Shown piece by piece: positions 13,418 to 49,052 of a stretch of DNA of 64,000 nucleotides (position 1 is the first letter of the stretch; each line of letters begins with the position of its first letter). Origin of the DNA: Candidatus Spongiisociaceae bacterium (lineage in GTDB: Bacteria > Actinomycetota > Acidimicrobiia > Spongiisociales > Spongiisociaceae); the NCBI GenBank assembly GCA_965262915.1, contig OZ253564.1:896001-960000 (forward strand), written 5' to 3'. Made by a program: the position numbers and the translations under genes. A model generated the notes under the pieces. The model was not told the DNA's origin, searched no databases, and saw nothing but the letters and a program-made list of their open reading frames with translations.

Positions 13418-13647
13418 GCGAGCCTGGAACCCGAGCGGATAGGCAGTCTTAACCCCGGCCAAGGGTCGTCGAAGAGTGGTGTCTGTGCTGTGGTCGAGGA
13501 TTTCGGCCGGTTCGGAGGAGCTGTCAAGCCTCCATGTAGCCTCTGGTCAGCGTTCCCTCGGGTGAAGAGGAGTTGGACGACCGGCGTGACGCCTGATGGA
13601 TACCTGCACCAACGCATGGAGCGTCCTTCCGGAAGAGCTTGCTCGTG

Positions 13648-15900: not shown

Positions 15901-15980
15901 TCGAGGCGAGTGCCGTGCCCAACAGTGGGACGGCTCTCACGATCGCCCCAAGGCGGGTGGGCGGCTCGTTCAGTGGCCCT

Positions 15981-16030
15981 TTACCTGTCCTCGTCCAAGA
16001 CGCGCAGCACGATCTTGCCGACGTTGGGTC
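15981..16030 (-). pseudogene. Orphan 3' tail of an MDR dehydrogenase (PNVGKIVLRVLDEDR*)
   Basis: Homologous to the end of 37275..38339 (RNVGKIVLRVSGKGG*); 21 bp identical and stop codon at the same spacing. Confidence 0.8.
16006..16026 (+). repeat. 21-bp direct repeat AGCACGATCTTGCCGACGTTG (left copy)
   Basis: Identical to 37300-37320. Confidence 0.9.
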
Positions 16031-16031
16031 G

Positions 16032-16151
16032 GGTATCGAGGCGGAGGTGATCGATCCCCGCACCTTGTCCCCGCTGGAGCAGCACATAGAGCCGAGGACC
16101 GACAAGATTATCGCAGCCGCGCGAGCGGCTGCGCGCGTGACCTCCGGTTGA
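16032..16151 (+). pseudogene. Internally deleted remnant of an E1 beta copy 2 homolog
   Basis: GIEAEVIDPRTLSPL fused to EQHIEPRTDKIIAAA; matches 13109-13155 joined to 13335-13417. Confidence 0.85.
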
Positions 16152-16535
16152 CGGGACTGCAAGACGAGCGGACTCGGTCTCGTAACTCCTCCGCAGACCA
16201 GTTCATCGCGAGAGTATCGACGGAGCCGCATGGAATGTAGTACCATATACCCGCCCGGTCTAGAACCGGACATCGTACGGCAGTCCGAGGCATCATGATT
16301 CGGAACTGAGCGAGCCTGCCGGAGCGCCACACCGAACAGCGTGACGCAGCTGCTCACCTCAAGATCACGAACCCTTTCTCGGGCGATGGTCCCACACGCG
16401 CCGGCATCTTGAAATCACAACGGCCGCACCCGGACGACTCCCCGGGTGATTCCAGCCAGGCCTCAAGCTTTCTTCAAGGAGCTCAAAGCCACCCGGCCTT
16501 GGCTATTTCGCGCGCCGCTAGGTCTTACAACATGA

Positions 16536-16578
16536 TGTGTCAAAACGGTTGACACAGTTCTGTGGCTGTGGGTAAGCT
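16536..16578 (+). promoter_or_regulatory. Putative promoter (TTGACA-18-TAAGCT) overlapped by palindrome TGTGTCAA-N5-TTGACACA
   Basis: Perfect 8-bp inverted repeat 16536-16556 containing a consensus -35, upstream of the SBP start at 16615. Confidence 0.55.
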
Positions 16579-16614
16579 GCGATATGAGGGCGTTCGGCAC
16601 CAAGGGAGGGCAGC

Positions 16615-18000
16615 ATGGCCAAAGAGCTTAACTCTGGCAAAATCGGTAAAAGGACGGTGGGGGACTTCGTCCGGCTTCCACTGCGACGACGATGGCTGGC
16701 GGCAGTTGTCGTTATCGCTGGCCTCGCGGCGGTAATTACCGCATGTGGTGACGACGAGGAAGTCGAACCCACGCCTACGACGGCCGCGCCGGCCGCGACA
16801 ACGGCCGCGCCGCCCGCTACGACCGCGGGGCTTTCGGGAACTGTCACGATGATGCGGGGGCCATTTAGTGCGGACGATACGGTTTGGGAGGATCCGCTTG
16901 TCGCCGCATTCAATGCGAACCACCCCGGTGTAGAGATAATCAATACCACCTATGATTGGGCTGCCGCAGACGCGGAAATCGCAGCTGCCTTTGCCAGTGG
17001 TTCACCCCCAGATATCATTTACCTTCCTGACCAATGGTATGGCCAGTACGCGGTGGCCGGTCAACTGGAACCGATCACAGCCCTCGTTAACGACCCCGCA
17101 TTTGCCGACGACTACGCTGCGATTCCTCAGGCTTTCTGGGACGTAGCGACTATCGATGGTGAGGTTTACGGTGTTCCGGCCCTCGGAGTTGTCTTCCCGA
17201 TCTTTGTCAACCTTGACCTGTTGGAGGAGGCTGGCGTGGCAGATACTTGGGATGACTCCTATGAAGCACTCGCTGATGCTGCACGCAAACTGACTACGGA
17301 TGAGGTTTGGGGATTCTCATTCAGGTCTGAATTTATTGACGCTGGATACTGGGATTGGTTTCCCTACATCCAGAATGCAGGCGGCAACGTGCTAAACGAC
17401 GATTGGAGCGCTTGTGGCTTTAACAATCCTGAAGTGGTCACAGGTGTCCAATTCCTGATCGACACCATTGAGGAGGGAATAGCGCTCCCACCCGGCGAAT
17501 ACGACTGGGCTGGTCAAAAGGCTCTGTTCTCGGCAGGTAAGATTGCCATCAACCATAACGAGGGGTCGTTCATCAACGAGCTCCTCACAAACGACCCGGG
17601 CTTCCGATGGGATGTTCGTCCCGCACCGCCCGGACCAGTGACACAAACAATGATGGGTAATTTCGGCTTCTTGTTCATCTCCTCGGCGAGTGAAAACAAG
17701 GAGGCTGCCTGGGAATACATCAAACACTGGACATCTGCGGAAGAGGCTGCGGCATACACTGAGGCGAACAGTCTCTTCTCTATACGATCTGATCTCGTCA
17801 ATCCGTATGCCGATAACCCGTTGATGGCACGAGTGCTACATGACTACGTCCCGATGGTTAAGGGGATTCAGGCTCACCCGAGGATGCGTGAGATCCTGAA
17901 TACCATCTGGCCCACGTTCAGCGCTGCATATCGTGGCCAATACACGGCTCAGGAGGCGGTCGACAAGGCGTGTGCAGATATGGCGAGCCTTTTGGGTTAG
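16615..18000 (+). CDS. Carbohydrate-type ABC substrate-binding lipoprotein
   Basis: Signal peptide with ITAC lipobox, TTAAP linker, PDI, YGVP, N.DLL..AG, F.AGK.A motifs; GGGAGG RBS. Confidence 0.92.
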   Translation: MAKELNSGKIGKRTVGDFVRLPLRRRWLAAVVVIAGLAAVITACGDDEEVEPTPTTAAPAATTAAPPATTAGLSGTVTMMRGPFSADDTVWEDPLVAAFNANHPGVEIINTTYDWAAADAEIAAAFASGSPPDIIYLPDQWYGQYAVAGQLEPITALVNDPAFADDYAAIPQAFWDVATIDGEVYGVPALGVVFPIFVNLDLLEEAGVADTWDDSYEALADAARKLTTDEVWGFSFRSEFIDAGYWDWFPYIQNAGGNVLNDDWSACGFNNPEVVTGVQFLIDTIEEGIALPPGEYDWAGQKALFSAGKIAINHNEGSFINELLTNDPGFRWDVRPAPPGPVTQTMMGNFGFLFISSASENKEAAWEYIKHWTSAEEAAAYTEANSLFSIRSDLVNPYADNPLMARVLHDYVPMVKGIQAHPRMREILNTIWPTFSAAYRGQYTAQEAVDKACADMASLLG

Positions 18001-18984
18001 ATGGATTCAATCTCCGACAGCGTTGTACAGTCAAATACAAGAGCAACCCCGCCGGTTGACCCCGGCGGGGTCGCTCTTCGGTTGACCCCGCAGCAACATG
18101 AACGCCTTGCACGGAAGTACCGGGTACGACGCTGGATTGTAGGCTACGCCTTCATCGCGCCGATTCTGTTCTTCTTCGCACTATTCATGATCGTACCGAT
18201 CGGATGGGTTGTGTACGGAAGCTTCCAACAGGGTGGTATCATCACTCCGAGTGAGTTCGTTGGTCTTGAAAACTGGCAATCGGTTTTTGGCGACGAGCTT
18301 GTCAGGACGACGGTCAGGAACACCGGGTTCTTTGCGTTGCTTGCGATTCCGGGAGTGATCGTCGTCGGCCTCGTTCTGGCCCTCGCTCTCTTGAGAATTC
18401 AAAGGGGAGAATCCGTCTTCCGAGCAGGAATCTTCTTTCCTGTATTGGCTCCTCCTGTAATCGGAGCGCTGATGTTCTTGTTCGTGCTGCATCCGGACTT
18501 TGGTGCTGTTACATTGGCGATGCGTACGGTTGGTCTTTCCTCGCCTTCCTGGCTAGGGGATCCGGCGTACGCTTTGCCGAGTGTCGCCGCGTTTGAGATT
18601 TGGCGGGGCGCTGGGTTCTATGCTCTCGTCTTCCTTGCGGGATTGTTGGCCCTGCCGAAAGAGCTTTATCACGCTGCGGCGCTTGACGGTGCCAATACCA
18701 TTCGTCGTTTCTGGCACGTTACTTTGCCGCTCCTCAAACCGACCGCTCAATTCGTGCTGGTAATGGCGACTATTTGGAACCTGCAGCTGTTCGATTCTGT
18801 CTTCGTGTTGACTGATGGTGGTCCGGTGAACAGGACTGTCACGGTTGTCATGTATGTATATCGGAGTCTCTTTGCCTTTGGGAATGTCGGCTTTGGCTAC
18901 GCTCTCTCCATGGTGCTTCTCATCGTGATCCTTGGAGTATCGCTTGTTCAGTTCCGCCTTCTACGGTCGCGAAGATCATCATGA
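18001..18984 (+). CDS. Carbohydrate ABC permease (MalF-like); true start may be further downstream
   Basis: FVGL.N, LY.AAALDGA....FW.VTLPLL EAA loop, GGP...T; a GC hairpin at about 18046-18070 lies in the 5' part. Confidence 0.92.
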   Translation: MDSISDSVVQSNTRATPPVDPGGVALRLTPQQHERLARKYRVRRWIVGYAFIAPILFFFALFMIVPIGWVVYGSFQQGGIITPSEFVGLENWQSVFGDELVRTTVRNTGFFALLAIPGVIVVGLVLALALLRIQRGESVFRAGIFFPVLAPPVIGALMFLFVLHPDFGAVTLAMRTVGLSSPSWLGDPAYALPSVAAFEIWRGAGFYALVFLAGLLALPKELYHAAALDGANTIRRFWHVTLPLLKPTAQFVLVMATIWNLQLFDSVFVLTDGGPVNRTVTVVMYVYRSLFAFGNVGFGYALSMVLLIVILGVSLVQFRLLRSRRSS

Positions 18985-19895
18985 GGCAGACACAAACTCG
19001 GGCTTCAAGCAATGACACCGATCGCACTCGATGGCCGATTATGACCCCCCCGGGACTCGCTTTCAGGAAGGGCCGCGTAGCGTCGCGTATGACGGCCTAC
19101 TCTATATTGATAATAGCGTCCATTGTTATGGTCGGACCGCTCTTCTATATAGTGTCGACTTCGATTAAGAAGACAACACAGTTGTTTGCGTATCCTCCCG
19201 ACTGGCTTCCCGAGGTTCTATTCTGGGGGAACTACTCGACTCTCCTCGGATCAGATAGTCTTTTCCTAAGGTGGACCCTAAACACACTCCTCGTGGCTGG
19301 AGTTGTTACTGTCCTCAAAGTTATTATTGACTCGATGGCCGGTTACGCCTTCGCCAAGATAGAGTTTCCGGGGAGGAGGATTCTGTTTATCCTCATCCTC
19401 GCAGTCGTCATGGTACCTACTTCGGCAGTCATTATACCGTTGTTCCTTCTCGTTCGGGGAATGGGACTCCTTGACACCTACTGGGCGTTGATACTTCCAC
19501 CTCTAGCTAATCCGGTAGGTGTGTTCTTGATGAGAAACTACATCCAATCTTTGCCACGTGATCTTGAGAACTCGGCTCGACTCGATGGGTGTTCGGAGTT
19601 CAGTGTCTACTTCAGGATCATACTACCCTTGGTTAAGCCGGGCCTAGTCGTACTAGGAATTCTCACCTTTCTTGCTCAGTACACAGCATTCCTATGGCCG
19701 CTGCTGGCTGTTCAAGATGAAAAGCTCCAGGTATTGACTACAGGTGTGGCGGAGATGAAAGCAAGTATCTTTACCATTGATTGGGGGCTCGTCTCCGCCG
19801 CGAGTGTCCTCTCTATGGTTCCGATCACCATTATGTTTTTCATGTTCCAACGGTACTTCAGTGGTGGATCGATAGCAGGAGCGTTGAAGCAATGA
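18981..19895 (+). CDS. Carbohydrate ABC permease (MalG-like)
   Basis: AGYAFAK..FPG, LP.DLE.SARLDG EAA loop, QRYF..G...GA.K. Confidence 0.93.
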   Translation: MRQTQTRASSNDTDRTRWPIMTPPGLAFRKGRVASRMTAYSILIIASIVMVGPLFYIVSTSIKKTTQLFAYPPDWLPEVLFWGNYSTLLGSDSLFLRWTLNTLLVAGVVTVLKVIIDSMAGYAFAKIEFPGRRILFILILAVVMVPTSAVIIPLFLLVRGMGLLDTYWALILPPLANPVGVFLMRNYIQSLPRDLENSARLDGCSEFSVYFRIILPLVKPGLVVLGILTFLAQYTAFLWPLLAVQDEKLQVLTTGVAEMKASIFTIDWGLVSAASVLSMVPITIMFFMFQRYFSGGSIAGALKQ

Positions 19896-21025
19896 CAGAG
19901 TACACAGCATTAGAGAGCGCTATCAACCTGGTGCACGTATCTAAGAGATATGGTGACAATCTTGCGGTGGACGGGTTCACTGCTGCCATGGCCCCGGGGG
20001 ACTTTGTTGTTCTCTTGGGACCGTCTGGTTGTGGGAAGTCAACCATACTCAAGATGATTGCCGGTCTCGAAGATGTGACCGAGGGCGAGATATATATTGC
20101 CGGAGAATTGGCAAACTATATTCCGCCAAAGAACCGTGACGTCGCGATGGTGTTCCAGAACTACGCTCTGTATCCGCATATGATGGTGTCGCGGAATCTG
20201 GCGTTCCCGCTGAAAATGCGAGGGGTAGACCAGGCCAGAATCCGAAAGAGAGTGGACGAGGTGTCTTCGCTACTTGAGTTGTCCTCTTTGCTCGATCGCT
20301 TTCCGGATGAACTCTCTGGCGGCGAGAGGCAGAGGGTCGCTCTAGGCCGGGCGATTATTCGGGATCCGGTCGCCTTCTTGATGGACGAGCCGCTATCAAA
20401 CCTTGACGCGCTACTGCGATTCCAGATGCGGGACGAACTGCTGAAACTTCATAAGCGGGTGGGGCGGACGACAATCTACGTCACTCACGATCAGATCGAG
20501 GCTATGGCCATGGCGGATTCCGTGATCGTGCTGAAGGACGGTCGGATTCAGCAAATCGGTAATCCCCAAGACGTGTACGACAGGCCGGCCAACACGTTCG
20601 TTGCAACCTTCATAGGCAGCCCACCGATGAATCTGCTGCGCGGCCGCACAGAGGTTGGTAGACACGGGTTGATGTTCACTTGGAGGGATCATCGCATTCC
20701 ACTGGACAATGGATCGATACCCGTTGCGCCCGAGTCCATCGTCGGCGTGCGTGCGGAGGATGCAGAGCTAACCCAGGACTCGGGCGATGGCGTGTTGAGG
20801 GGTGTCGTAGGCTTGGTAGAGCCCGTGGGCGCCGATAAATTCATACGTGTTGAGATAGATGTCGATGTGTACTGGTATGTTCGAGTTTCGTCTGTGACCG
20901 ATGTCAGGGAGGGTGAGGCTATAGGGGTGAGAATCTCAGCGGACAGGTACCACCTCTACGACCGTGAGGGTAACCTCTATAGCCGTGAGAGTGGTGCCGG
21001 AGTAACTACGCCGAGTGATAGTTGA
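19892..21025 (+). CDS. ABC ATP-binding protein (MalK/UgpC-like)
   Basis: GPSGCGKS, VFQNYALYPH, LSGGERQRVALGR, DEPLSNLD, HDQ.EAM; ATGA coupling. Confidence 0.95.
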   Translation: MTEYTALESAINLVHVSKRYGDNLAVDGFTAAMAPGDFVVLLGPSGCGKSTILKMIAGLEDVTEGEIYIAGELANYIPPKNRDVAMVFQNYALYPHMMVSRNLAFPLKMRGVDQARIRKRVDEVSSLLELSSLLDRFPDELSGGERQRVALGRAIIRDPVAFLMDEPLSNLDALLRFQMRDELLKLHKRVGRTTIYVTHDQIEAMAMADSVIVLKDGRIQQIGNPQDVYDRPANTFVATFIGSPPMNLLRGRTEVGRHGLMFTWRDHRIPLDNGSIPVAPESIVGVRAEDAELTQDSGDGVLRGVVGLVEPVGADKFIRVEIDVDVYWYVRVSSVTDVREGEAIGVRISADRYHLYDREGNLYSRESGAGVTTPSDS

Positions 21026-21055
21026 TGGGTCGGAGAGCCAGTCGGGAGGACGCGT

Positions 21056-22840
21056 TTGGTCAGTGCGCTAGGTGGAGGGTCGCTAATCCGTCGTAGCGAG
21101 TGGACCGCATCCGCCGGGATCAACGTGGACTATGACGCTGAAATGGTAACGCGAGACGGAACTATCTTGCTGGCCGACGTTTATCGGTCCAAGGAAAGCG
21201 ATCAGCCACGACCGGTCCTGCTGGTACGCACCCCTTACGACAAGACTCATGTACACATGGCAACCTACCTTCATCCCGCTTGGTATGCGAGAGAGGGGTT
21301 CATTGTCGTCATTCAGGATGTTCGAGGCCGCTTTGCATCGGAGGGAAGATTCGATCCCTTCCTGAACGAGGGTGAAGATGGATTCGATGCAGTTGAGTGG
21401 GCCGGGGCACTCGAGGGGTCAAATGGGCGTGTTGGGATGTATGGTGCCTCCTACGCTGGGGCTGTACAATTACTGGCGGCGGCCAAGCACCCTCCTCACC
21501 TCCACGCAATAGCTCCTGCGGTTACAAACGTCGATTTCCACAGTTGGATGTACGAATCGGGTGCCCTTAACCTAGGGTTTGCAGCCACTTGGAGCCTGTT
21601 CCTGGCGCACAACGGTGCAAACCGCCAGGGCGATTCAGAGGAGGCTAGGCGCCTCATCCGGCTCGCTGGAGGCTCTCCGGACTGGTTAATGCATGGTCCG
21701 CCCTCGGAATTAGCTGATATTCTCGGGCCCTACACCCCATTCTTCAAAGAGTGGATCAATCAATCTAGCCAGGGTCCAATTTGGGACCGACTAAGTGGTG
21801 ACGCTGTCCCCGAAACGACGCGAATCCCGACGCTCCACATCACCGGATGGTACGACATTTTCTTGTCCGGCGCACTACGCGCCTACCAAGGCCGTAGTGA
21901 CGCTGTCGATACAAGCCAGCGCCTGGTAATCGGACCTTGGGCACACTATCCGTGGGGTGATCAGTTTGGTACCGATTCGAATGGAACGAGACGAATCGAC
22001 TTGTTGCAGGTCGAGTTCTTCCGTCGGCATTTGTCGGACGGTGTTACGGAGCACGATTCGCCCGTGAACTACTACGTCCTCTTTGAAGGATGGCGTAGAA
22101 GCGATGATTGGCCACCAAGACCGTCGAGAGTCGGTCGGCTGTTCCTGCGAAGTCAAGGTTCAGCGAATACACGCTGGGGAGACGGACGCCTAGATCCAAT
22201 TTCACCGAGTGATCCCGAACCATGTGACATATATCAGTACTATTCTCCAACGCCTGTGCCGGCCGTTGGAGGGCATTCGTGTTGTGACCCGGGGATGGTA
22301 CCCATGGGCTGCGTTAACCAGTTGTCGGTGGAGCAGCTTCCGGACGTTCTCGTATATACGACGGCACCTTTTGCGCGTGACCTGATTGTGGCGGGACCGA
22401 TTGATCTCCAGCTCTACGTTGCAACCGACGCGGACTCAGCTGATTACTTCGCAAGGCTATGTTTGGTTAACGAGAAGGGCTCTTGGAATGTTGCAGAGGG
22501 CATCCGACGGCTTGATACCGAGGAACTTCAGGAGTCGCGCGCTGGTGATGGTGTTACGCCAGTGCTCATCTCCCTCCGTGATACTGCTGTGCAGGTAAGG
22601 AAAGGTGAGCAGCTACGGCTCCACATCACAGGGGGATCCTTTCCGATGTTTGATGTTAATCCACAGACAGGCGAGTCCCCGCTCACAACCCCACGATGGG
22701 AAGGTCGCGGTGCTCTACACGCTATTCTGCACGAACCACGTCACCCTTCCGTCCTGCAATTCCGTGAAGTTTGTGAAACGGATACGAGTCTTATCGAGGA
22801 AGGGCCATCCTCCGAAATATCGAACGCTATAGCCAACTAA
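21056..22840 (+). CDS. CocE/NonD family serine hydrolase
   Basis: RDG..L..D.Y, RTPY, QDVRGR..SEG, GASY nucleophile, GWYD, GPW.H; start uncertain. Confidence 0.92.
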   Translation: MVSALGGGSLIRRSEWTASAGINVDYDAEMVTRDGTILLADVYRSKESDQPRPVLLVRTPYDKTHVHMATYLHPAWYAREGFIVVIQDVRGRFASEGRFDPFLNEGEDGFDAVEWAGALEGSNGRVGMYGASYAGAVQLLAAAKHPPHLHAIAPAVTNVDFHSWMYESGALNLGFAATWSLFLAHNGANRQGDSEEARRLIRLAGGSPDWLMHGPPSELADILGPYTPFFKEWINQSSQGPIWDRLSGDAVPETTRIPTLHITGWYDIFLSGALRAYQGRSDAVDTSQRLVIGPWAHYPWGDQFGTDSNGTRRIDLLQVEFFRRHLSDGVTEHDSPVNYYVLFEGWRRSDDWPPRPSRVGRLFLRSQGSANTRWGDGRLDPISPSDPEPCDIYQYYSPTPVPAVGGHSCCDPGMVPMGCVNQLSVEQLPDVLVYTTAPFARDLIVAGPIDLQLYVATDADSADYFARLCLVNEKGSWNVAEGIRRLDTEELQESRAGDGVTPVLISLRDTAVQVRKGEQLRLHITGGSFPMFDVNPQTGESPLTTPRWEGRGALHAILHEPRHPSVLQFREVCETDTSLIEEGPSSEISNAIAN

Positions 22841-22843
22841 AGA

Positions 22844-24277
22844 GGCTCTTCGGAAATGAGTGGGGAGTCGGGGATCTGCCAGGGGGAGTGGTAATCCACC
22901 AGAAGTGATGGGGGGTCCTCCATAATCGGGTGCTGAGAAAAGACATCCGAGGCAGGAGGACCCCTGTGGAAGCTGATCCTACGCGCATGTGCGAGTTGTT
23001 GGTAGGCCTGGGCGACGTTGATCTGGTAGGGATCAACGACTCGGGCGAGGGTGCACCGCTTGGGGTGGTGATCCGTTCCCGCAAGCCCCGCCCGTTGTGT
23101 GAGTCCTGTGGCGGCCCGGTGTGGTCCAAGGGTCACAGAACGGTTGTGTTGGTGGATCTACCGGCGTTCGGCCGTCCGGTTCGGCTGCGGTGGCGGAAAC
23201 GCCGCTGGACGTGCCCGAACCCCGACTGTGAGATCAGATCGTTCATCGAACAAGACCCCACGATTGGTCCCCAACGGGCGTTGTTGACATCCCGAGCGGC
23301 CCGGTGGGTGACCATCCAGGTGGGTGGGCGGGGCCGTTCGGTCGACGAGGTCGCCGCAGAGCTGGGTTGTGATTGGCATACGGTTAACAACGAGGTCGTC
23401 CGCTGGGGCGAAGCCCTCCTGGGGGCCGACACCGATCGGATAGGCGAGGTCCAAGCTGTGGGCATCGACGAGACGCTGTTCTGGCGGAAAGGCCGGTGGC
23501 GCACCAAGGTTTGGTGCACCTCTGTCGTCGACGTGGGAGGCCACCAGCTGATCGACATAGTCCCTGGTAGAACGGCTGATAGCGCAGCTTCGTGGTTCCG
23601 ATCCCAACCCCCCGAGTGGCTCGACGGGATCCGCTGGGCGGTGTTGGACATGTCCGGTCCTTACCGGAAGGCGTATAACCGGGTGCTCCCGAACGCTCTC
23701 CAGGTAGCAGACCCCTTCCACGTCATCCGCCTCGCCAACCAGCGACTCGACGAAGTACGACGCCGCACCCAGAACGAAACCCTCGGGCATCGAGGCCGCA
23801 AGGATGACCCGCTGTATCGGATACGCCGCCTCCTCACCGCCGCCCACGAGAGGATCAGCGACCGCGGTCAAACACGGCTGCGTGGTCTTTTGGATGCCGG
23901 TGACCCCTACGGGGAGGTACGCACAGCCTGGCACGCGAAGGAAACGGTACGAGGCATCTACGGGATCGAAAGTCCGGTCCTTGCTCTCCGATACACCCTC
24001 CAGCTCGCAGACGACCTCCAACACGAATCCTGCCCACCCGAGATCAACAAGCTCGGTCGCACCATCGCCCGCTGGACCCCCCAGATCACCAACTGGCACA
24101 TCTCGAAGGTAACCAACGGACCCACCGAAGCCCTCAACAACCTCATAAAGCGGATCAAACGCATCGCGTTCGGGTTCCGCAACTTCGCGAACTACCGAAT
24201 CCGCGCCCTTCTCTACGCCGGGAAACCCAACTGGGACCTACTCGCCACCGTCACTCCCCACTGAAATCCGATGAGCC
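22844..24277 (+). mobile_element. Intact ISL3-family insertion sequence (1434 bp)
   Basis: Terminal IRs GGCTCTTCGGAAATGAGTGGGGAGT / GGCTCATCGGATTTCAGTGGGGAGT (21 of 25 match); 8-bp target duplication ACTAAAGA at 22836-22843 and 24278-24285. Confidence 0.95.
22966..24264 (+). CDS. ISL3 family transposase
   Basis: CxxCG zinc finger, GIDE, DMS..Y, D.FHV, TNG.TE.LN..IK.IKR..FGFRN; AGGAGG RBS before GTG. Confidence 0.96.
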   Translation: MEADPTRMCELLVGLGDVDLVGINDSGEGAPLGVVIRSRKPRPLCESCGGPVWSKGHRTVVLVDLPAFGRPVRLRWRKRRWTCPNPDCEIRSFIEQDPTIGPQRALLTSRAARWVTIQVGGRGRSVDEVAAELGCDWHTVNNEVVRWGEALLGADTDRIGEVQAVGIDETLFWRKGRWRTKVWCTSVVDVGGHQLIDIVPGRTADSAASWFRSQPPEWLDGIRWAVLDMSGPYRKAYNRVLPNALQVADPFHVIRLANQRLDEVRRRTQNETLGHRGRKDDPLYRIRRLLTAAHERISDRGQTRLRGLLDAGDPYGEVRTAWHAKETVRGIYGIESPVLALRYTLQLADDLQHESCPPEINKLGRTIARWTPQITNWHISKVTNGPTEALNNLIKRIKRIAFGFRNFANYRIRALLYAGKPNWDLLATVTPH

Positions 24278-24481
24278 ACTAAAGAAGATTGCCCTGCTGA
24301 TTCCGACCGCCGCTTGAGAGTCCAAGACGTGATCGTTTCTTAGCTCTGGCGTACCGGTACCGGCAACGATGCCACCGCTTCGAAGTATGTGTAGATCCAG
24401 CCGTCGGCATGACAAGTCCGTCGGTGTGGATGCCACGCCGGTTGCCGTCCAAATGGGTACAACCACCATTACTTGGAGGAG

Positions 24482-26707: not shown

Positions 26708-26740
26708 TACTGGACCTGCCTCCGTGTGGTGACGCCATAC

Positions 26741-27799: not shown

Positions 27800-27813
27800 G
27801 TGGATGTCCTTCC

Positions 27814-28400: not shown

Positions 28401-28506
28401 CCTCCCGTGTGGCCTTACGTTCTCAGTGGCACCAGCCTTGTTTGCGTATCATTCCTCCCCATGTTCGAGTATCATTCGATACACGCTGTTCGAGAGCCGT
28501 ATTGAA

Positions 28507-28896
28507 GTGAAACCCGAGTACTTGAACCCCGACACTCTGGCACCGCCGGCGGCACCCTTCACCTATGTGGTCAAGTGTGGAAGCGTGGTCTATCTATCCG
28601 GTCATGTTGCCTTCGACGAGAACAACAAAGTGGTCGGTCCTGGAGATCCTCGACGCCAGGCGGAACAATGCTGGGACAATATCGAACTTGCCGTAGAAGG
28701 CGCTGGTGGCACACTCGCGAACGTCGTGAAGATTCAGGTGTTTCTCAAAGATATTCGATTTGCGGAGGCCGAACAAGCAGTAAGAGTTGAGAGGTTCCAG
28801 GGAATGCGGCTCCCGGCGTGCACTCTTGTGGAAGTGTCGAATCTCGGGATGCCTGAGCTGCTCATGGAGATCGATACTGTTGCCGTCCTCGACTGA
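28507..28896 (+). CDS. Rid (YjgF/YER057c/UK114) family protein
   Basis: YLSG, Q..Q...NI...VE.AG..L..VVK, EID..A; PAC instead of PAR at the catalytic Arg position. Confidence 0.88.
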   Translation: MKPEYLNPDTLAPPAAPFTYVVKCGSVVYLSGHVAFDENNKVVGPGDPRRQAEQCWDNIELAVEGAGGTLANVVKIQVFLKDIRFAEAEQAVRVERFQGMRLPACTLVEVSNLGMPELLMEIDTVAVLD

Positions 28897-30943: not shown

Positions 30944-32676
30944 CCGACCACGTGGACACTGTAACCATGACGGTCGTAAGCAACTATCTCCGTAACGTCT
31001 GTCAAGAGATGGGCGTTGCCATGATGAGAACCTCGTTCTCCACCATCTTCAATGAAGGCCTCGACTTCTCCTGCGTGGTCTTCGATGCAGCGGGGCGAGC
31101 CATAGGAACCGGTGAATTCTGCCCGGCGCAGATCGGCGCCATCAACTTCGTGGTGGCCTGGTGCATCGAAGAACTCGGCGTCGAAGCTTTCAACGAGGGA
31201 GACGTCGTGATCCACAACGACCCCTATCGCGGAAACTGCCACATGCCAGAGCACATGGTGATGAAGCCGGTCTTCTTTGACGGCGAGCTCGTTGCCTTTG
31301 CAGCGACCATCGCCCATATGGCTGAAATCGGCGGAAAGGCTCCTGGAGGATTTGCGGCCGATGCCGTGGACGTGTACCAGGAAGGGCTGCGGCTACCGCC
31401 CATCAAGCTGATGGAGCGTGGAGAGCGAAACGAAGACGTCTGGAAGCTGGTTCTCATGAACCATAGGACGCCGCGGAGCACATGGGGCGATCTGCATGCG
31501 ATGGTTGGTGCGTTGAATGTTGGTGAGCAACGACTCAAGTCGCTTTTCGGGCGCTACGGAACAGATCGTGTCGCCTCGATCAACGATGCTCTATTCGACT
31601 ATTCGGAGCGCCGGATGCGCGAGGAGATTGCGGCGATTCCCGACGGCGAGTATCTGTGGGAAGACGTTGTTGAGGACGACGGCGTGGTGGCGGACAAGTC
31701 TTATTGGATCCGAGCCAGAATATTCGTCGACGGTAGCGACATCATCCTCGATTTTCGAGAGAGTGACGATCAGGCCCAAGGACCGTGCAACATGACCTTC
31801 GGTTCTACCATGTCAGCGGCTTATAACGCGATGCTCCAGGTGACCGATCCCACGATTCCCAAGAACGCCGGATGTTACCGACCTATCCACGTCATCACTC
31901 GTCACGGCAGCATCGTGAACGTCCAGCCTCCGGGGCCGTCTGTCGGCGGTAACTCCGAGATCCATCCCCGCGTGGTCGATCTGATCCTCGCTGCTTTGGC
32001 GCCCGCGATACCTGACCGTGTTGCGGCGAGTTCTGGGGGCAATAGCTGTAGCTTCTTGTTCGGAGGTTGGCATCCGAAGACAGGCGAGTACTTCACCAAC
32101 TACCACATCGAAGGCATCGGCTGGGGTGGAACCGTAGCGGGAAACGGTAACAACTCGCAGAACGTCATCAACGGCAATTGTCGCAACACACCAATCGAGG
32201 TTTTCGAAACCCGGTTTCCCGTCCGCGTGGGATGGCTCCGGCTCGTCCCTGACTCCGGAGGTGCCGGCCAGACGCGTGGCGGCCTCGCGTGTGAGCGTAT
32301 GCTCGAGGTTCTGTCCCCTGAACTCACCGTCGCCGAATTCACCGATCGGATGACAACACAGGCATGGGGCCTTTTCGGAGGATCACCCGGCTCGAGCACA
32401 GCGACATTTATGAGACTGCGTGGAACTGATGAGTGGGCAACGGTGGGAAACATGTTCGGTACAGTCTCGAACAGCAAGTATTCCGGCATCAAGCTGAAGG
32501 AAGGTGATTGCGTATTGCTACGGACTGCCGGCGGGGGAGGATACGGCCCGCCGACGAATCGCGATCAGGCCCTTGTGGCAGCGGACGTTGCCGACGGATT
32601 TATTACTCCCGAGGCGGCCCTCCGCTATTACGGCGTTCGGATTGCCACTGATCACCAATCGAGACAAGCACCGTGA
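30940..32676 (+). CDS. Hydantoinase B/oxoprolinase subunit, copy 2
   Basis: EMG....RTSFS...E..DFSC, NDPY...H.P, EGLRLPP, NTPIE..E, DSGGAG..RGG, GGGGYG.P. Confidence 0.95.
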   Translation: MTDHVDTVTMTVVSNYLRNVCQEMGVAMMRTSFSTIFNEGLDFSCVVFDAAGRAIGTGEFCPAQIGAINFVVAWCIEELGVEAFNEGDVVIHNDPYRGNCHMPEHMVMKPVFFDGELVAFAATIAHMAEIGGKAPGGFAADAVDVYQEGLRLPPIKLMERGERNEDVWKLVLMNHRTPRSTWGDLHAMVGALNVGEQRLKSLFGRYGTDRVASINDALFDYSERRMREEIAAIPDGEYLWEDVVEDDGVVADKSYWIRARIFVDGSDIILDFRESDDQAQGPCNMTFGSTMSAAYNAMLQVTDPTIPKNAGCYRPIHVITRHGSIVNVQPPGPSVGGNSEIHPRVVDLILAALAPAIPDRVAASSGGNSCSFLFGGWHPKTGEYFTNYHIEGIGWGGTVAGNGNNSQNVINGNCRNTPIEVFETRFPVRVGWLRLVPDSGGAGQTRGGLACERMLEVLSPELTVAEFTDRMTTQAWGLFGGSPGSSTATFMRLRGTDEWATVGNMFGTVSNSKYSGIKLKEGDCVLLRTAGGGGYGPPTNRDQALVAADVADGFITPEAALRYYGVRIATDHQSRQAP

Positions 32677-32900
32677 GTGGAGACTGGGTCACCCTTGATC
32701 GCCCGCTCTATGAGACGGAGATACAGGCTTGCTCTGCGTGCGGTGCGATGATTGCCGGACGCGGTTGGTGGACTGCCTCACCTGAGGGGCGCCTTTTATG
32801 CGGACCGGAATGCGAGCAACTCGAGGTTCGTGTGTCCGAGTTGCGAGAGCGCTATCGAAGCGACGGAAGGCAGTTTGCTTCGTTGAGTATGGAGCCGTGA
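32673..32900 (+). CDS. Small Cys-rich protein, possible Zn-binding accessory subunit
   Basis: 75 aa, CxxC...CxxxC, overlaps both neighbours by GTGA coupling. Confidence 0.7.
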   Translation: MSGDWVTLDRPLYETEIQACSACGAMIAGRGWWTASPEGRLLCGPECEQLEVRVSELRERYRSDGRQFASLSMEP

Positions 32901-33796
32901 GCGTGGCTGAGCACGTCATAAGCCTGGGCCCACTCCTATACGAGATTAGCCGGCTCCGCGAGCCGATGATAACGATCGACCCTGGGGATAGCGTCGTGGT
33001 TGAGACGGAAGACGCGTTCTCCGGACAGGTTCGGTTGCCCGGGGATGTCCGAGATCGCACGGCCCTACCGCTCAGTGATCCCGTCGCCGGGCCCATCGTC
33101 GTAAGCGGGGCTGAACCAGGGGATTCGCTACGCGTGTACATCGTTGACATCGAGCCACTTCTCGGCCAATGCGCGACCTACGTACTGCCTGCCCCGCCTG
33201 TTGTAGCCGCGCTCGCATCGCCAGTGCCGGATATGACGCGAATTTGCCAGATTGTGGATGGTCAGATCCTCTGGAGCGAGGACTTCACAATCCCGTATCG
33301 CCCTATGATCGGAACAATCGCTTGTGCTCCGGCCATGGGGGCCGCAACGACAGTATCCGCTGGCGACTATGGGGGCAACATGGACCTCCGCGAGGTTGCT
33401 CCTGGGTCTACTGTGATGCTTCCGGTGTTCGTTCCCGGTGGATTCCTGTACCTGGGGGATTGCCACGCCGCGCAAGGTGCGGGCGAGGTAAGCGGTATCG
33501 GGTTGGAGATGCCTGCACGAAGCCGGATCGTCGTTGATCTGGAGAAGAGCATCGAGTTGCGGTGGCCACGGATCGAGACGGAGAGCGATCTAATGGCTGT
33601 AGCGTGTGGGAGACCGCTCGATGAGGCAGTTGGCGTAGCGTTCAGTCGGCTCGCAGTGTGGATGGAGAGAAGCTATGGCTGGGCCTGCTGGGAGGCATTG
33701 AGCCTGCTCTCACAGGTGGGCGAGGTCAGCGTTGGCTACTACTGGGGTGGCGGCGTTGCTGCGAAGGTATCCAAGTCGTATGTCCAACGAACCTAG
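32897..33796 (+). CDS. Acetamidase/formamidase (FmdA/AmdA) family protein
   Basis: GPI.V.GAEPGD.L.V, PMIG.I, GGNMD, GDCHA.QG.GE; start 32897 or 32903. Confidence 0.9.
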   Translation: MSVAEHVISLGPLLYEISRLREPMITIDPGDSVVVETEDAFSGQVRLPGDVRDRTALPLSDPVAGPIVVSGAEPGDSLRVYIVDIEPLLGQCATYVLPAPPVVAALASPVPDMTRICQIVDGQILWSEDFTIPYRPMIGTIACAPAMGAATTVSAGDYGGNMDLREVAPGSTVMLPVFVPGGFLYLGDCHAAQGAGEVSGIGLEMPARSRIVVDLEKSIELRWPRIETESDLMAVACGRPLDEAVGVAFSRLAVWMERSYGWACWEALSLLSQVGEVSVGYYWGGGVAAKVSKSYVQRT

Positions 33797-33830
33797 GCAG
33801 TGAGTCGAAATGAGGAAGTGAGTTCGCAAT

Positions 33831-34682
33831 ATGAACACACCTCGACCGAAGATTGGTAGCATGAACGATTCACGCGACGTTTCATTCGAGTTCCCATCGA
33901 TAGAACATCCGGCGTTGCTTCAAGTACTTCTCGAAGAGGCCAAGCGACGCAGTGTTCCTATCCACCGTATATCTATGGGTGGTGGAACCCGCATGCTGAC
34001 GAATGGCGAACGCGAGGACATGCTCAGTCAAGCGCACGAGCACGGTATCGACGTCTACTCATTCATATCGTCCCGCAACTCGTTCGAGCCTCTCGTTGAC
34101 AAAGGAGCAGGCGACCAGTTGCGAGGTGAAGTCGCGTTCCAAGATGCTATTGAAGAACTCCATCGATGCTCTGAATGGGGAATCGATGGAGTTCTCGTCG
34201 CAGACCTGGGGCTTCTCGATGCCGCGAACAAACTACGTATGAGCGGTGATCTGCTCGGACTCGCCTTCAAGACATCCGTAGTAATAGCTCCAACGAACGC
34301 CGCTACCGCCCAGCTGTATGAGAGGCTTGGGGCTACAAGTATCAATGTATCCGGTTCGTCGACGATCGATGATCTGGCTGCGATGCGCTCCCGGCTCTCA
34401 AGTTCCACCAGTCTCGATATCTACATCGAGATCTCTGCCGATTTGGCCGGAGGACTCCGCTACCGAGATGCTGCTGCTCTCGTGGAAGAGGCTGCTCCCG
34501 TGCATCTCAAGTTCGGGTTGCTAAACGCACCGACGCTATATCCGTATGGAGCGCATCTCGAGGCTATCGCACAGCAAACCGCCCGCGAGAAGGTCCGACG
34601 CGCCCAGCTCGTATGCGAAGACCTCGCCAGAGCAGGAGTCAATATACAAGCCGCAGTAGGCGCGAAGGCTAACAGCGTTTGA
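33831..34682 (+). CDS. U32-peptidase-like TIM-barrel protein of unknown function
   Basis: E.PS.E.P, HRIS.G.G..ML, G....LVAD.G, K.SV, LGA.S.NV, D.Y.E, P..LKFGL.NAP.LYP.G.H pattern of the actinobacterial U32-like family. Confidence 0.7.
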   Translation: MNTPRPKIGSMNDSRDVSFEFPSIEHPALLQVLLEEAKRRSVPIHRISMGGGTRMLTNGEREDMLSQAHEHGIDVYSFISSRNSFEPLVDKGAGDQLRGEVAFQDAIEELHRCSEWGIDGVLVADLGLLDAANKLRMSGDLLGLAFKTSVVIAPTNAATAQLYERLGATSINVSGSSTIDDLAAMRSRLSSSTSLDIYIEISADLAGGLRYRDAAALVEEAAPVHLKFGLLNAPTLYPYGAHLEAIAQQTAREKVRRAQLVCEDLARAGVNIQAAVGAKANSV

Positions 34683-35121
34683 ATGTCAGTGACCTTGTAA
34701 CATCCGTGCCTACCATCGATCTTGGCCAAGTAGAGGTGAACATTTCCCAGCCCCAAATGTCCGCTGATGAACGTAGGCTCAGAAACAGACCTGACTCCAA
34801 GGCCCACAAACTGCCGTGCAGAGCCCATATGCAAGTCCAGGCCAGCACAGTAGTAATCGCCTCCCGGAGTAGTGTGAAACGCCTTCCGACACTGTCGGAA
34901 GCTGAGTTTATGGCTGCCGCGGCTATTCGTAACTTTCAGATCCTCTTGTCCGTGATCGGGTGCCGGATTGTCGAACGCTGTGCGGCTGTGGTTGATCGCG
35001 TGGGTTACAAACCACGATTCGAGAAGAACCCTACGAGGAAGAGGGCATTCCCAGAGTTCGATTTGCTGGCTGCCCAAGGCAGCCATCTACAGAATTCAGA
35101 AGCGACGGGAGGCCGTTTTCG

Positions 35122-36174
35122 ATGACACACGGCCGACGACTGTCCCCATCGGTATTGCACGGCTGGGCGACCGAGATCGTACGTTCGGCGGGAGCCTCCG
35201 TACCAGCAGCAGAGGCAACAGCGACAGCGCTGATTGACGCCAACCTACGCGGCCTGGACACACACGGCCTCGTCCTGCTCAGGTTGTATCTGCCTCGACT
35301 GAGAAGCGGGACAATCGATGGGCAGGCGAAACCCGAGGTTATCAACGACCTTCCGGGTGCGGTAGTAGTCGATGCTCGAAACGCACTTGGTCCATACGCA
35401 GCGACAATCGCAACCGAACTCTGCTGTGACAAGGCCGAGAGCAGCGGTGCTGCTGTCGCGCTCGTTCGGAGATCGAACCACTTCGGAGCGGCGTCGGTGT
35501 ACTCGGAGCAAGCGGTTCGGCGAGGCTGCGCGGCCATTGTTTTTTCGAATAGCGACCCGGGTTTAGCTCCACGGGGAGCTCTCGGTCCGATTCTTGGAAC
35601 CAATCCTCTGGCAATCGCCGTGCCCGCGCACGCCGAAGAGATCGCCCCTTCCCTCGATATCGCCACCAGCGTCGTCGCTCTCGGTCGAGTCCGAGCCGCG
35701 GCGCGAGCCGGAGACCGTCTCCCACCAGGATGGGCGATAGGGCCCGATGGAGCGCCGACCGAGGAGCCCGAACTCGCTCTTGCCGGCAGTCTGCTCCCTT
35801 TCGGAGAGCACAAGGGATTCGCGCTTGCCTTCATGATTGACACGTTGGCCGGATGTCTGGCAGGGGCACGAACAAGCCCGTCGATAAGTGCCGATCCGGT
35901 TGGGCTCAAGCCCCAACATCTAGGTCACTTCATCCTGGCCATCAGCCTTGGAGCCGTGGGCAACATGGCGGGTATTCTATCCTGTGTCGAAGCACTGACA
36001 GACACAGTGCATACGGCGGGGAGAGCTAAGGAGGTTCGACCATTCCTGATCCCCGGAGAACGTGAAGCACGGTTGGCCGCCGAGCGTCGCACGAGGATCC
36101 CAATCGGATCTGGAGATCTCGCCTTGCTCGAGGGTCTCGGCCGTGATTTCAACGTGACCTTCCCGAGTCGCTAG
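35122..36174 (+). CDS. Ldh_2 family NAD(P)-dependent oxidoreductase (AllD/ComC/DpkA-like)
   Basis: RG.DTHG, SNHFG, GTNP.A, LDIATS, LLPFG.HKG, PGERE. Confidence 0.93.
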   Translation: MTHGRRLSPSVLHGWATEIVRSAGASVPAAEATATALIDANLRGLDTHGLVLLRLYLPRLRSGTIDGQAKPEVINDLPGAVVVDARNALGPYAATIATELCCDKAESSGAAVALVRRSNHFGAASVYSEQAVRRGCAAIVFSNSDPGLAPRGALGPILGTNPLAIAVPAHAEEIAPSLDIATSVVALGRVRAAARAGDRLPPGWAIGPDGAPTEEPELALAGSLLPFGEHKGFALAFMIDTLAGCLAGARTSPSISADPVGLKPQHLGHFILAISLGAVGNMAGILSCVEALTDTVHTAGRAKEVRPFLIPGEREARLAAERRTRIPIGSGDLALLEGLGRDFNVTFPSR

Positions 36175-36176
36175 CC

Positions 36177-36983
36177 GTGGAAACACGAGCCTTCGGTTCC
36201 ACCGGCCTGAACCTCCCTGTCGTAGGTCTGGGCACATGGTCAACGTTTGATCTCCCGGCGTCTCGCGAGGCCACCGCCTCCGGAGTTGTAGCGGAAGCAT
36301 TGGGCGCAGGCACTCGCCTCTTTGACACCTCTCCGATGTATGGGCGCTCGGAAGCCGTCTTATCGAGAGCGCTTGCCGATCGCCGGGCTGACAGCATCGT
36401 CGCCACCAAGATATGGGCACAATCCGAGACCGAGGGACATCACCAGTTCGCCCGGCAAGTCGAACTATTCGGTGGTTGGATCGACCTGGAGCAGGTGCAC
36501 AACCTTGTCGCCTGGAGAGCACACCTCTCATTCCTTGAGAAGGAACGAGACCGGGGTCGAATCGGGCTCATCGGTGCCACCCATCTCGATTCTGGCGCAT
36601 TCGACGAACTCGAAGTGGTGATGAATACCGGCCGGATCGACGCTATCCAGATCCCGTACAATCCATGGGAGCGGGTTGTTGAACAGAGGATCCTCCCACT
36701 CGCAGAAGAACTCGGCCTCGGTGTCATCGTCATGCGACCCTTCGCAGAAGGCGCGCTTTTCCACCAACCCGACTCATCCGAGATCGAAAGGCTGGGAGTC
36801 CGTTCGTGGTCGGAGGCGTTACTCAAGTGGGTGTTGTCGGACAGCCGCGTGCATGTTGTCATACCCGCCACAAGCAAGCGAGACCACGCGCGACTCAACG
36901 CGATTGCGGGGAGCGCTCCGTACCTACATGCCGACCAGCGTGCCGCTGTCGAGCGCCTCGCAGGCGATTGGGAGACCGCGTGA
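36177..36983 (+). CDS. Aldo/keto reductase
   Basis: GLGTW, FDTSPMYG.SE, ATKI, DL.QVHN, Q.PYN, IPATS. Confidence 0.92.
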   Translation: METRAFGSTGLNLPVVGLGTWSTFDLPASREATASGVVAEALGAGTRLFDTSPMYGRSEAVLSRALADRRADSIVATKIWAQSETEGHHQFARQVELFGGWIDLEQVHNLVAWRAHLSFLEKERDRGRIGLIGATHLDSGAFDELEVVMNTGRIDAIQIPYNPWERVVEQRILPLAEELGLGVIVMRPFAEGALFHQPDSSEIERLGVRSWSEALLKWVLSDSRVHVVIPATSKRDHARLNAIAGSAPYLHADQRAAVERLAGDWETA

Positions 36984-37108
36984 CGGAGGGGGCTCTCGCG
37001 ATTCTCGTGGATTGCCGACGGTCGTGGACTCCGATCCTGGAGCCCGGAGCTTGCCACAAACCCAGACGTGCCGGCGTCGGCCCGGCACACCACCAGTCAA
37101 AACATCCC

Positions 37109-37162
37109 GACTCCACGAAACCAGGGCATCACCCCACTCTCCGATAGACCCGAGGCGGTTCA
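37109..37162 (+). mobile_element. Isolated IS3-like terminal inverted repeats
   Basis: Reverse complements TGAACCGCCTCGGGTCTATCGGAG (ending at 37162) and TGATGCCCTGGTTTCGTGGAG (ending at 37131) resemble the IR at 27814. Confidence 0.55.
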
Positions 37163-37274
37163 TACTCCAAGATCGGGTAATTGTTGACCCCCAAGGTTTC
37201 TGGATACCTCAACCGCTCAGCGGTGGATTACCACCCGTACCCCTCGGAATTACTCCTCTAGGCCGGCTCTCCCC

Positions 37275-38339
37275 TTATCCGCCCTTGCCCGAGACCCGTA
37301 GCACGATCTTGCCGACGTTGCGTCTCGACCGGAGGTCGGCATAGGCCTCCCGGATGCGGCGTAGGGGCCGGACGGAGTCGATTCCGGGATGGATCCTGCT
37401 TGCTGCCGCCAGGTCGAGACACCGCCGCATACCTCGGCTGGTGGATCCCGAACTGCCGTAGATCGCCACCCGCGATCTGAACAGCCAGTTGTTGTTGAGC
37501 TGAACGAGGGGTCCCGCATGCGATCCGCATACGACGACCCTCGCCCGGTTGCGCAAGGTCTTGAGGGCCTCATTCCACACCGTCGGGTTACTGGCCGGTT
37601 CCAGGTACACGGTGACCCCTTCCGGGGCGATCTCGCGGACCGAATCCGAGAATTCGGGCTCCGCCGTGTAGTCGATGGTCGCATCGGCGCCCGCCGCGGC
37701 TGCCTGCGATGCCCGGTCGGGTGACCCGGCGGCTCCGATCACGATGGCACCTGCGAGTTTGGCGAGTTGCACCGCGGCGAAGCCGATAGCGCCCGACGCT
37801 CCGGTCACGAGCACGACATCCTCTCCGGTAAGGCTCACACGCGTGAACATCTGCTCCGCCACGGGAAAGGAGTGGGCGAGCGCGGTGGCCTGCGCATGGC
37901 CGAGGCTGTCTGCGATGGGAAATACGCTGCGTTCGGGGACGGTCACGTACTCGGCATGTCCGCCCCATCGGTGAACCCCCACGTTGTGCAGGGACGGGCA
38001 GGAGTCGTCCTCACCGCGTTCGCAGGATTCACAGATGCCGCACGCTATCGGCGGTTTCACGACCACGCGCCGGCCGACATCGAGAGAGGAGACCTCCGAA
38101 CCGCGGCCCGCGACCACTCCCGACGGGTCGATACCCATCACATGGGGGAAGGACAGGTTGGCCTTGTGAGCCCGTCCGGACATGGTGAAGAGGTCCTGGT
38201 GGTTGACCGCAACCGTCCGAACCCGGATCAACACCTCGTCCGCGGCCGGTGCCGGCACCGGCAAGCGGGTTTCGACGATGTGCTGGGGGCCTCCCACCTC
38301 CACCAGCGCCATCACGTGCATGGTGTCCGGTACGTTCAC
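37275..38339 (-). CDS. MDR superfamily (Zn-ADH-like) oxidoreductase
   Basis: Structural-Zn CGICESC..G....C, GASGAIG nucleotide-binding motif, GKIVL; catalytic-Zn positions read VNHQD and GID. Confidence 0.92.
   Translation of the reverse strand: MNVPDTMHVMALVEVGGPQHIVETRLPVPAPAADEVLIRVRTVAVNHQDLFTMSGRAHKANLSFPHVMGIDPSGVVAGRGSEVSSLDVGRRVVVKPPIACGICESCERGEDDSCPSLHNVGVHRWGGHAEYVTVPERSVFPIADSLGHAQATALAHSFPVAEQMFTRVSLTGEDVVLVTGASGAIGFAAVQLAKLAGAIVIGAAGSPDRASQAAAAGADATIDYTAEPEFSDSVREIAPEGVTVYLEPASNPTVWNEALKTLRNRARVVVCGSHAGPLVQLNNNWLFRSRVAIYGSSGSTSRGMRRCLDLAAASRIHPGIDSVRPLRRIREAYADLRSRRNVGKIVLRVSGKGG
37300..37320 (+). repeat. 21-bp direct repeat (right copy), inside the 3' end of the MDR gene
   Basis: Identical to 16006-16026. 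Confidence 0.9.
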
Positions 38340-49011: not shown

Positions 49012-49052
49012 TGCTGTCGGATGTTCATCGGTACCGGACATCGTATACGATC

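Follow-up and report, generated by a model that had tools for sequence, protein, structure and literature searches.

How does a block of metabolic genes of about 20 kb, with the 3' end of one and the same host gene at both of its borders, come to lie between two convergent genes when no integrase accompanies it? The question is raised by a 64-kb stretch of DNA, hereafter the window, from the genome of a Candidatus Spongiisociaceae bacterium (G000; contig OZ253564.1, positions 896,001 to 960,000, renumbered here from 1), in which 21.3 kb separate the gene for a molybdopterin-binding large subunit (Mo) from a gene of the medium-chain dehydrogenase/reductase (MDR) type. A first-pass annotation had read the segment as an integrative island that entered the 3' end of the MDR gene by a single crossover and replaced its tail. 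We find the segment best described as a genomic island in the broad sense, that is, horizontally acquired accessory DNA, because it is absent from this site in relatives, deviates in composition and is distributed patchily at two sites. The explanation we favour, with a probability of roughly 0.55, is an old, non-site-specific insertion of an acquired gene cluster, tied to a local duplication of DNA from the host's own lineage. The genes and repeats that frame the locus are:

12374-13417, plus strand: resident E1-beta (transketolase-like) gene (Pfam Transket_pyr, Transketolase_C; NCBIfam E1 beta-like model, below cutoff)
13639-15900, plus strand: Mo gene, xanthine/CO/aldehyde dehydrogenase family (Pfam MoCoBD_1, MoCoBD_2, Ald_Xan_dh_C)
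15977-16030, minus strand: orphan MDR 3' fragment, the left copy of a 54-nt repeat, with tail …NVGKIVLRVLDEDR and stop at 15981-15983; 21-nt block at 16006-16026
16532-37005, no strand: island core, collinear with contig C72 of genome G001 and contig C86 of genome G165, 81.3% nucleotide identity to each with the ISL3 element excluded
37271-37324, minus strand: right copy of the 54-nt repeat, the present MDR 3' end, …NVGKIVLRVSGKGG and stop; 21-nt block at 37300-37320
37275-38339, minus strand: intact MDR gene of 354 aa, zinc-type alcohol dehydrogenase family (Pfam ADH_N, ADH_zinc_N), stop at 37275-37277

The 21-mer is exact and occurs only twice in the window, a number reached in none of 100 dinucleotide-preserving shuffles, and the core has no additional copy elsewhere in the G000 genome. 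Each copy lies 25 bp from an in-frame stop on the minus strand, and the two tails read from that strand are those given in the first-pass annotation. A gap-free extension turns the 21-mer into a 54-nt direct repeat in which 44 of 54 positions are identical and 8 of the 10 differences are transitions; beyond its ends, local alignments of the outside sequence score no better than shuffles. With 10 mismatches in 54 nt, a perfect run of 21 nt is only marginally longer than expected (P = 0.043 by simulation). The left tail is an orphan, its minus-strand reading having stops further upstream, and it occupies the place where the native MDR end belongs, as had been proposed. Tails of the MDR protein differ among relatives (…LSVAEGDW, …LIVDS and …LRGADGDGQRGS, each followed by a stop, and in two further relatives, translated from the printed DNA, …LRVSGGDNPAGG and …LRVSNGDGQESP), and therefore replacement of the tail is unlikely to matter for function.

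We compared the 3' kilobase of the Mo gene with 40 related genomes (these, and the 400 genomes of the order searched for the cluster below, include the unpublished genomes G028, G039 and G196, on which no individual claim depends) and fetched the loci of the eight in which an ortholog was present at 78-82% nucleotide identity. The order E1-alpha, E1-beta and Mo, converging on MDR, a major facilitator superfamily (MFS) gene and an ABC transporter gene, is conserved in the relatives, and the MDR protein is 66-83% identical to its orthologs in conserved synteny. The Mo gene is thus the native left flank of the segment, and MDR, followed on the right by the MFS and ABC genes, is the native right flank. 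Mo converges on MDR, or on the 3' part of MDR, in seven of the eight loci, which come from two genera, with spacers between the aligned gene ends of 36, 95, 104, 433, 513, 2075 and 5214 nt; the convergent gap is a recurrent variable spot in the family. In the eighth locus (G003) no MDR gene was found within the 8.7 kb of sequence available. None of the cluster genes is present in the Mo/MDR loci of the eight relatives, and the 21.3 kb between the repeats are therefore extra DNA at this site in G000. The empty site that the first-pass annotation suggested looking for is thus there. Three of the relatives' loci have features of their own: the 5.2-kb gap of G002 (locus L011, 11435-16648) holds a large open reading frame (ORF) of at least 795 aa together with ORF fragments resembling those of insertion sequences (IS), the 2-kb gap of G005 (L014, 4951-7025) holds an ORF of 362 aa, and in G007 (L012, 16115-16420) only the last 102 codons of MDR align.

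The segment also differs from its surroundings in composition, as had been noted by eye. In 1-kb windows its GC content is 0.51-0.61 (0.644 over the ISL3 element), compared to 0.64-0.67 in the flanks, and GC at third codon positions (GC3) is 0.54-0.67 in the 15 inner genes, transposase excluded, compared to 0.77-0.86 in the six flanking genes (E1-alpha, E1-beta, Mo, MDR, MFS and ABC). For the cluster as a whole the value is 0.569 against 0.644 for the G000 genome. A second GC-poor stretch (0.54-0.57), at 54000-59000 of the window, includes the genes of a further ABC importer and of a GFO/IDH/MocA oxidoreductase. No integrase, recombinase, relaxase or phage gene was matched by Pfam in the 23 ORFs in and near the segment or in the 31 other ORFs of the window, in agreement with the earlier remark that there was no integrase on board. 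ARAGORN found no tRNA or tmRNA gene in the window, and no Rfam family reached its gathering threshold anywhere in it.

The pieces between the flanking genes and the core are these:

16032-16122, plus strand: E1-beta relic, matching the resident gene at 13109-13161 (45/53 identical) and 13335-13388 (47/54)
16237-16316, no strand: fragment of a dispersed repeat of about 250 nt with at least 23 copies in the genome
16325-16466, minus strand: ISL3-B, decayed relic of a second ISL3-type element, retaining approximately IS positions 16-34 and 162-291, 72-76% identical to genome copies
37085-37162, no strand: fragment of a repeat of about 300 nt, with 3 longer copies elsewhere in the genome

The E1-beta relic, 91 nt long, carries a 189-nt in-frame deletion at a 16-nt direct repeat, which is where its two pieces overlap. 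The last position of the orphan MDR fragment is 16030 and the E1-beta match begins at 16032, its parent sequence normally lying 2.9 kb to the left. Since the joint links the end of the sequence running from the E1-beta 3' part through Mo to the MDR tail back to its start, it is head-to-tail, which is the geometry of the join point of a tandem duplication or of a circle and not that of a deletion. The joint is illegitimate. ISL3-B has an internal deletion at a CTGGAATC repeat and lies about 65 nt from the left edge of the cluster. To the right of the core are 270 nt, including the fragment of the repeat of about 300 nt, and then the MDR stop; an IS relic was looked for at this border and not found, and a comparison of the filler at the left border with that at the right revealed no common sequence.

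Both border duplicates derive from the lineage of the recipient itself or of a very close sister, and not from some remote organism that once harboured a mobile element. This is shown by two bases common to both MDR copies in G000 and absent from seven of seven relatives (the C in AGCACG, and a T four bases past the 21-nt block), and by the E1-beta relic, which is nearest to the resident gene: against the seven relatives its pieces score 39-43/53 and 37-42/54, below the values for the resident gene. By our reading of the alignment, the first 22 nt of the second piece are identical to the resident sequence, while every relative differs there at 4 or more positions. The shared T also means that MDR homology in the orphan reaches 16030. 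With a divergence of 13-19% between the duplicates and their partners, and with a decayed IS relic, the event is old.

The organism is present in sequencing runs X1-X7. The left junction is bridged at approximately 99.7-99.9% identity by contigs of runs X1, X2, X3 and X5, from four studies (X1 possibly being the source of the window), which shows that the arrangement is real, occurs in more than one sample and did not arise in assembly. These contigs show the left junction in its inserted form only, with neither an empty-site joint nor a circular one, although contigs drop rare variants, and the right junction lies beyond the stretch compared. Two apparent joints in contigs, 35000 to 15998 and 16119 to 15001, were rejected because in the alignment they only echo the right repeat copy and the resident E1-beta gene, respectively. 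Run X1 also contains a 156-nt contig of about 94% identity and about half the main depth, which covers 15881-16030 and stops within 5 nt of the joint between MDR and E1-beta; this could be a related strain with another continuation at the joint, or a break in the assembly graph. A contig of run X2 at about 91% identity likewise hints at related strains.

Where else does the cluster occur? When 400 other genomes of the order were searched with a 20-kb DNA query, long collinear matches appeared only in G001, of the same genus as G000, and G165, of another genus of the family; whatever else matched was either the ISL3 element or a short conserved stretch in the genes for the ABC-transporter ATPase and hydantoinase B. 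Fourteen of the 16 cluster proteins are found in the same order in both genomes at 74-92% identity, the two exceptions being the ISL3 transposase, which is missing, and a 148-aa ORF with a paralogous match only. G001 and G165 are 86.4% identical to each other in the cluster at the nucleotide level, compared to 81.3% for G000 with either, and the flanks are 80.2-80.7% identical. In all three genomes the cluster is GC-poor (0.569, 0.586 and 0.604, against 0.655-0.68 for the flanks). A scan of a genome collection with the hydantoinase B protein returned one close locus (L032, 92%) and one distant one (51%), and a scan of metagenome data with the MDR protein gave a single close locus (83%) besides six at 33-37%. 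None of these is near enough for the events to be dated or put in order.

In G001 and in contig C86 of G165 the cluster has a RecD-like helicase gene on one side and an acyltransferase/ankyrin gene on the other, and flanking repeats were looked for around both islands and not found. The distribution is thus patchy, with the cluster in 3 of 29 genomes of the family and at two different sites. In G000 the RecD-like and acyltransferase genes are adjacent (C1:3828596-3828824), and the same site is empty, the genes being at most 1.3 kb apart, in 12 of the 28 other family genomes, including contig C22 of G165; in some genomes a small helix-turn-helix gene follows the helicase gene. G165 holds this locus twice, empty at C22:127348-131577 and with the cluster at C86:109484-131049, and contig C86 may belong to a second organism in the bin (5% contamination) or the region may be duplicated. 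On C72 of G001 (locus L027, approximately 27900-29080) about 1.1 kb with ORFs of 94-183 aa lie between the helicase-side flank and the cluster and are absent from G000 and from C86 of G165; one of these ORFs, of 118 aa, may be toxin-like (PemK/MazF type) as judged by eye.

For the favoured insertion with local duplication, we infer the following order of events. A horizontally acquired catabolic cluster of approximately 20.5 kb would have entered the normally short gap between the convergent Mo and MDR genes, and would now lie within a local head-to-tail duplication of recipient-lineage DNA. What remains of the second copy (E1-beta 3' part, Mo and the last 54 nt of MDR) would be the 91-nt E1-beta relic on the left and the 54-nt MDR tail on the right, the latter now completing the MDR gene. 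This could have come about by a tandem duplication extending from the E1-beta 3' part to the MDR tail, with the redundant Mo copy later replaced by incoming DNA, or by an illegitimate insertion in one step, in which template switching or end joining took up copies of short fragments from nearby. Deletions at microhomologies, insertions of small repeats and the recent ISL3 insertion would have followed. The tandem duplication that the first-pass annotation named as its own refutation is thus part of the best explanation, but the relatives do not share it.

Several points weigh against this account. Similarity between the MDR copies stops 4 nt past the stop codon, so that a simple duplication needs a coincidental breakpoint, and the avoidance of the 21-nt block by mismatches would also fit a crossover or gene conversion there. 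No clear microhomology is present at the 16030/16032 joint, and neither a second Mo gene nor a relic of the Mo-MDR spacer was found in the borders, the full tandem duplication being inferred rather than seen. Of the 13 differences that separate the E1-beta relic from the resident gene we count 9 as synonymous, a bias hinting that the relic evolved for some time as a functional gene, perhaps in a sister strain, rather than just decaying where it now lies. Finally, neither a closer relative nor an intermediate arrangement was encountered among the 400 genomes or in the metagenome and genome-collection scans.

A single crossover by an integrative element, as first proposed, is supported neither by the anatomy of the left border, where the orphan tail is joined to a relic of host E1-beta, nor by the occurrence of the same cluster at another site without repeats. 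The extra DNA and its deviant composition stand, but not the imported replacement tail, since that tail is host-lineage DNA. In a more general form the proposal would have a tyrosine or serine recombinase, since lost or acting in trans, join a 21-bp attP core with the MDR 3' end, leaving the native tail as attL. We consider this distinctly unlikely, even though the exact direct repeat at both borders, its freedom from mismatches (the P value given above), the restored MDR reading frame with its stop at the same aligned position, the empty sites of relatives and the deviant base composition would all be expected of such an element. There is no recombinase in the island or the window, the genome contains no other copy of the core, G001 and G165 have the cluster at an unrelated site without repeats, the arm beside the core is a decayed piece of host E1-beta, the two repeat copies share the two host-lineage-specific bases, and no excision joint was seen in the contigs of the four runs, though contigs cannot show rare forms. 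Another reading is a Campbell-type single homologous crossover: circular, non-replicating DNA carrying the cluster, with an E1-beta fragment on one side of it and an MDR tail on the other, would have exchanged within the short MDR-tail homology, and the circle could stem, by looping out or by cutting, from a sister strain with the cluster in place of Mo. The structure (tail and core, E1-beta relic, cluster, then tail and core of MDR) is exactly that of an insertion-duplication, the identical 21-nt block could mark the exchange, and the relic, differing mainly at synonymous positions, would suit a functional allele from a sister strain. It is conceivable but in our view rather doubtful, as it requires both a circle and a Mo-less allele (E1-beta, cluster, MDR) that are unobserved, and neither the 400 genomes of the order nor the single scans of metagenome data and of a genome collection yielded such an allele; moreover, 21-54 nt of imperfect homology are a poor substrate for RecA.

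Entry in one step by replication template switching or break repair, a patchwork of the kind attributed to microhomology-mediated break-induced replication (MMBIR), would likewise need no integrase and is a tentative alternative to which we give limited weight. Synthesis would have left the chromosome in the MDR 3' end and copied a short piece of the nearby E1-beta gene, then pieces of dispersed repeats and an IS, then the 20.5 kb of incoming DNA, and its return 54 nt upstream of the point of departure would have regenerated the MDR end. The locus would then be a natural bacterial case of a large acquired segment fixed by an MMBIR-like mechanism. Relocation within the genome, from the site between the RecD-like and acyltransferase genes to the gap between Mo and MDR, for example by recombination between IS copies, might be suspected from the adjacency in G000 of the genes that flank the cluster in the other two genomes; from the divergence of the cluster, which equals that of the flanks (81.3% compared to 80.2-80.5% identity); and from the ISL3-type relic near its left edge in a genome with more than 40 ISL3 copies. 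We initially took the adjacency as proof and have withdrawn this, as the same site is empty in so many family genomes that emptiness is the common state and uninformative about the past of G000. There is no IS or scar at the G000 helicase site and no IS relic at the right border, and relocation concerns the source of the DNA while leaving the E1-beta and MDR duplicates unexplained; it seems improbable to us. That nothing was inserted, and that the relatives lost the cluster from an ancestral position between Mo and MDR, we regard as extremely improbable. Cluster divergence is indeed similar to core divergence, but Mo lies beside MDR in seven of eight relatives from two genera with short and differing spacers, the cluster is compositionally foreign, and the orphan tail and E1-beta relic are products of duplication.

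The later history of the locus is most visible in its mobile DNA. The first-pass annotation placed all IS elements of the window inside the segment; this holds for the sole intact transposase gene and for one ISL3-type relic, whereas dispersed repeats are also found outside. The two elements within the core are:

22844-24277, plus strand: ISL3-A, an intact ISL3-family element with imperfect terminal inverted repeats and an 8-bp target duplication, ACTAAAGA, at 22836-22843 and 24278-24285
28129-28405, no strand: dispersed repeat in a divergent intergenic (promoter) region of the cluster, with 14 genome copies by blastn; the alignment with G001 and G165 breaks here

The transposase gene of ISL3-A (22930-24264) has a host-like GC3 of 0.75. 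The element has more than 40 related copies in the genome, the nearest 99.93% identical (G000:C1:474769-476202), and is missing from the clusters of G001 and G165. Contigs from runs X1, X3 and X5 join 22835 to 24278 exactly, skipping ISL3-A, with the 8 nt of the target duplication fitting either side, and a more divergent fourth contig, from run X2, is also without it. ISL3-A is therefore a secondary and recent insertion that is not fixed. The small dispersed repeats outside the segment are at 4179-4315, 9255-9367, 41037-41215 and 53000-53395; with that at 28129-28405 they have 14-39 copies in the genome by blastn, and all five are possibly similar to miniature inverted-repeat transposable elements.

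Apart from these insertions, the core contains the following genes, identified with Pfam and NCBIfam models:

16615-21025, plus strand: ABC importer, consisting of a solute-binding protein, two permeases and an ATPase (Pfam SBP_bac_1, BPD_transp_1 twice, ABC_tran, TOBE_2)
21056-22840, plus strand: CocE/NonD-family (S15) hydrolase gene (Pfam Peptidase_S15, PepX_C; NCBIfam TIGR00976 above cutoff)
24482-26707, minus strand: N,N-dimethylformamidase-beta-like gene (Pfam DMFA2_C)
26741-28222, minus strand: gene for a pyridoxal phosphate (PLP) enzyme of the D-serine dehydratase/D-threonine aldolase type (Pfam Ala_racemase_N, D-ser_dehydrat)
28282-36983, plus strand: nine genes, including RidA, hydantoinase/oxoprolinase A and B, FmdA/AmdA-like amidase, U32-like, the 148-aa ORF, Ldh_2 and aldo-keto reductase (Pfam, NCBIfam)

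The same scan placed an ISL3 transposase match between the CocE/NonD hydrolase and the N,N-dimethylformamidase-like gene. The start of the PLP-enzyme gene is probably further downstream, since the alignment with G001 and G165 begins at residue 106/135, and the hydantoinase/oxoprolinase A and B proteins are nearest to caprolactamase NCBIfam models, with scores far below the cutoffs. As judged from these domain assignments, the importer and the set of amide, lactam and amino-acid-type hydrolases and dehydrogenases together form a putative 14-gene catabolic cluster for some nitrogen-containing compound. The neighbourhood of the island is itself already rich in genes for amide hydrolysis: the window contains two hydantoinase A/B pairs, one outside the island (5184-9259) and one inside it (28787-32676), and several amidase, amidohydrolase and nitrilase-type genes (2569-4239, 49011-51691).

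An integrase and att repeats are the marks by which most genomic islands are recognised. The present segment resembles islands, integrative and conjugative elements and prophages that restore the 3' end of their target in having border repeats, a look-alike replaced gene end, the native end at the far border and deviant composition. It differs from them in that it has no recombinase gene, the replacement end and the adjoining arm are host-lineage DNA, and the other copies of the cluster lie at a different site without att-like repeats. Thus it has the att-like repeats of a site-specific element, but neither a recombinase on board nor the same att sequence or target elsewhere, two defining features of such elements.

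Tandem duplications and Campbell-type insertion-duplications share with it the head-to-tail joint of sequences that lie 2.9 kb apart in the same order, and pieces that are mutually closest; here, however, the second copy is nearly all gone, replaced by 20.5 kb of foreign DNA. Duplications are generally unstable and usually reversed, whereas these copies are old, well diverged and not reversed. Tandem duplications next to transferred genes are treated in PMC11111574. Homology-facilitated illegitimate recombination (HFIR) is described in PMC3240628 for small linear DNAs; it could likewise join foreign DNA through homologous MDR sequence on one side and an illegitimate joint on the other, with the recipient's gene end alongside, but the present segment is 21 kb, its illegitimate end involves host-lineage E1-beta and there is no evident microhomology. 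The ISL3-type relic near the left edge and the abundance of ISL3 copies in the genome recall IS composite transposons and IS-mediated translocation, from which the segment differs in having no IS at the right border and no IS-type target duplication around the cluster, and the intact ISL3 element is later and separate.

A 20-kb metabolic cluster has thus been fixed in the chromosome with att-like repeats and yet no recombinase, the repeats being, on the favoured explanation, leftovers of a duplication of host DNA. For the calling of islands this is a caution, as a direct repeat and a restored gene tail do not by themselves prove site-specific integration, and the value of the locus is mainly methodological. 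In biological terms it is an ordinary case of genome plasticity whose junction is instructive, since it shows cleanly and in a natural setting that illegitimate recombination can add foreign operons to a genome while both neighbouring genes are kept intact.

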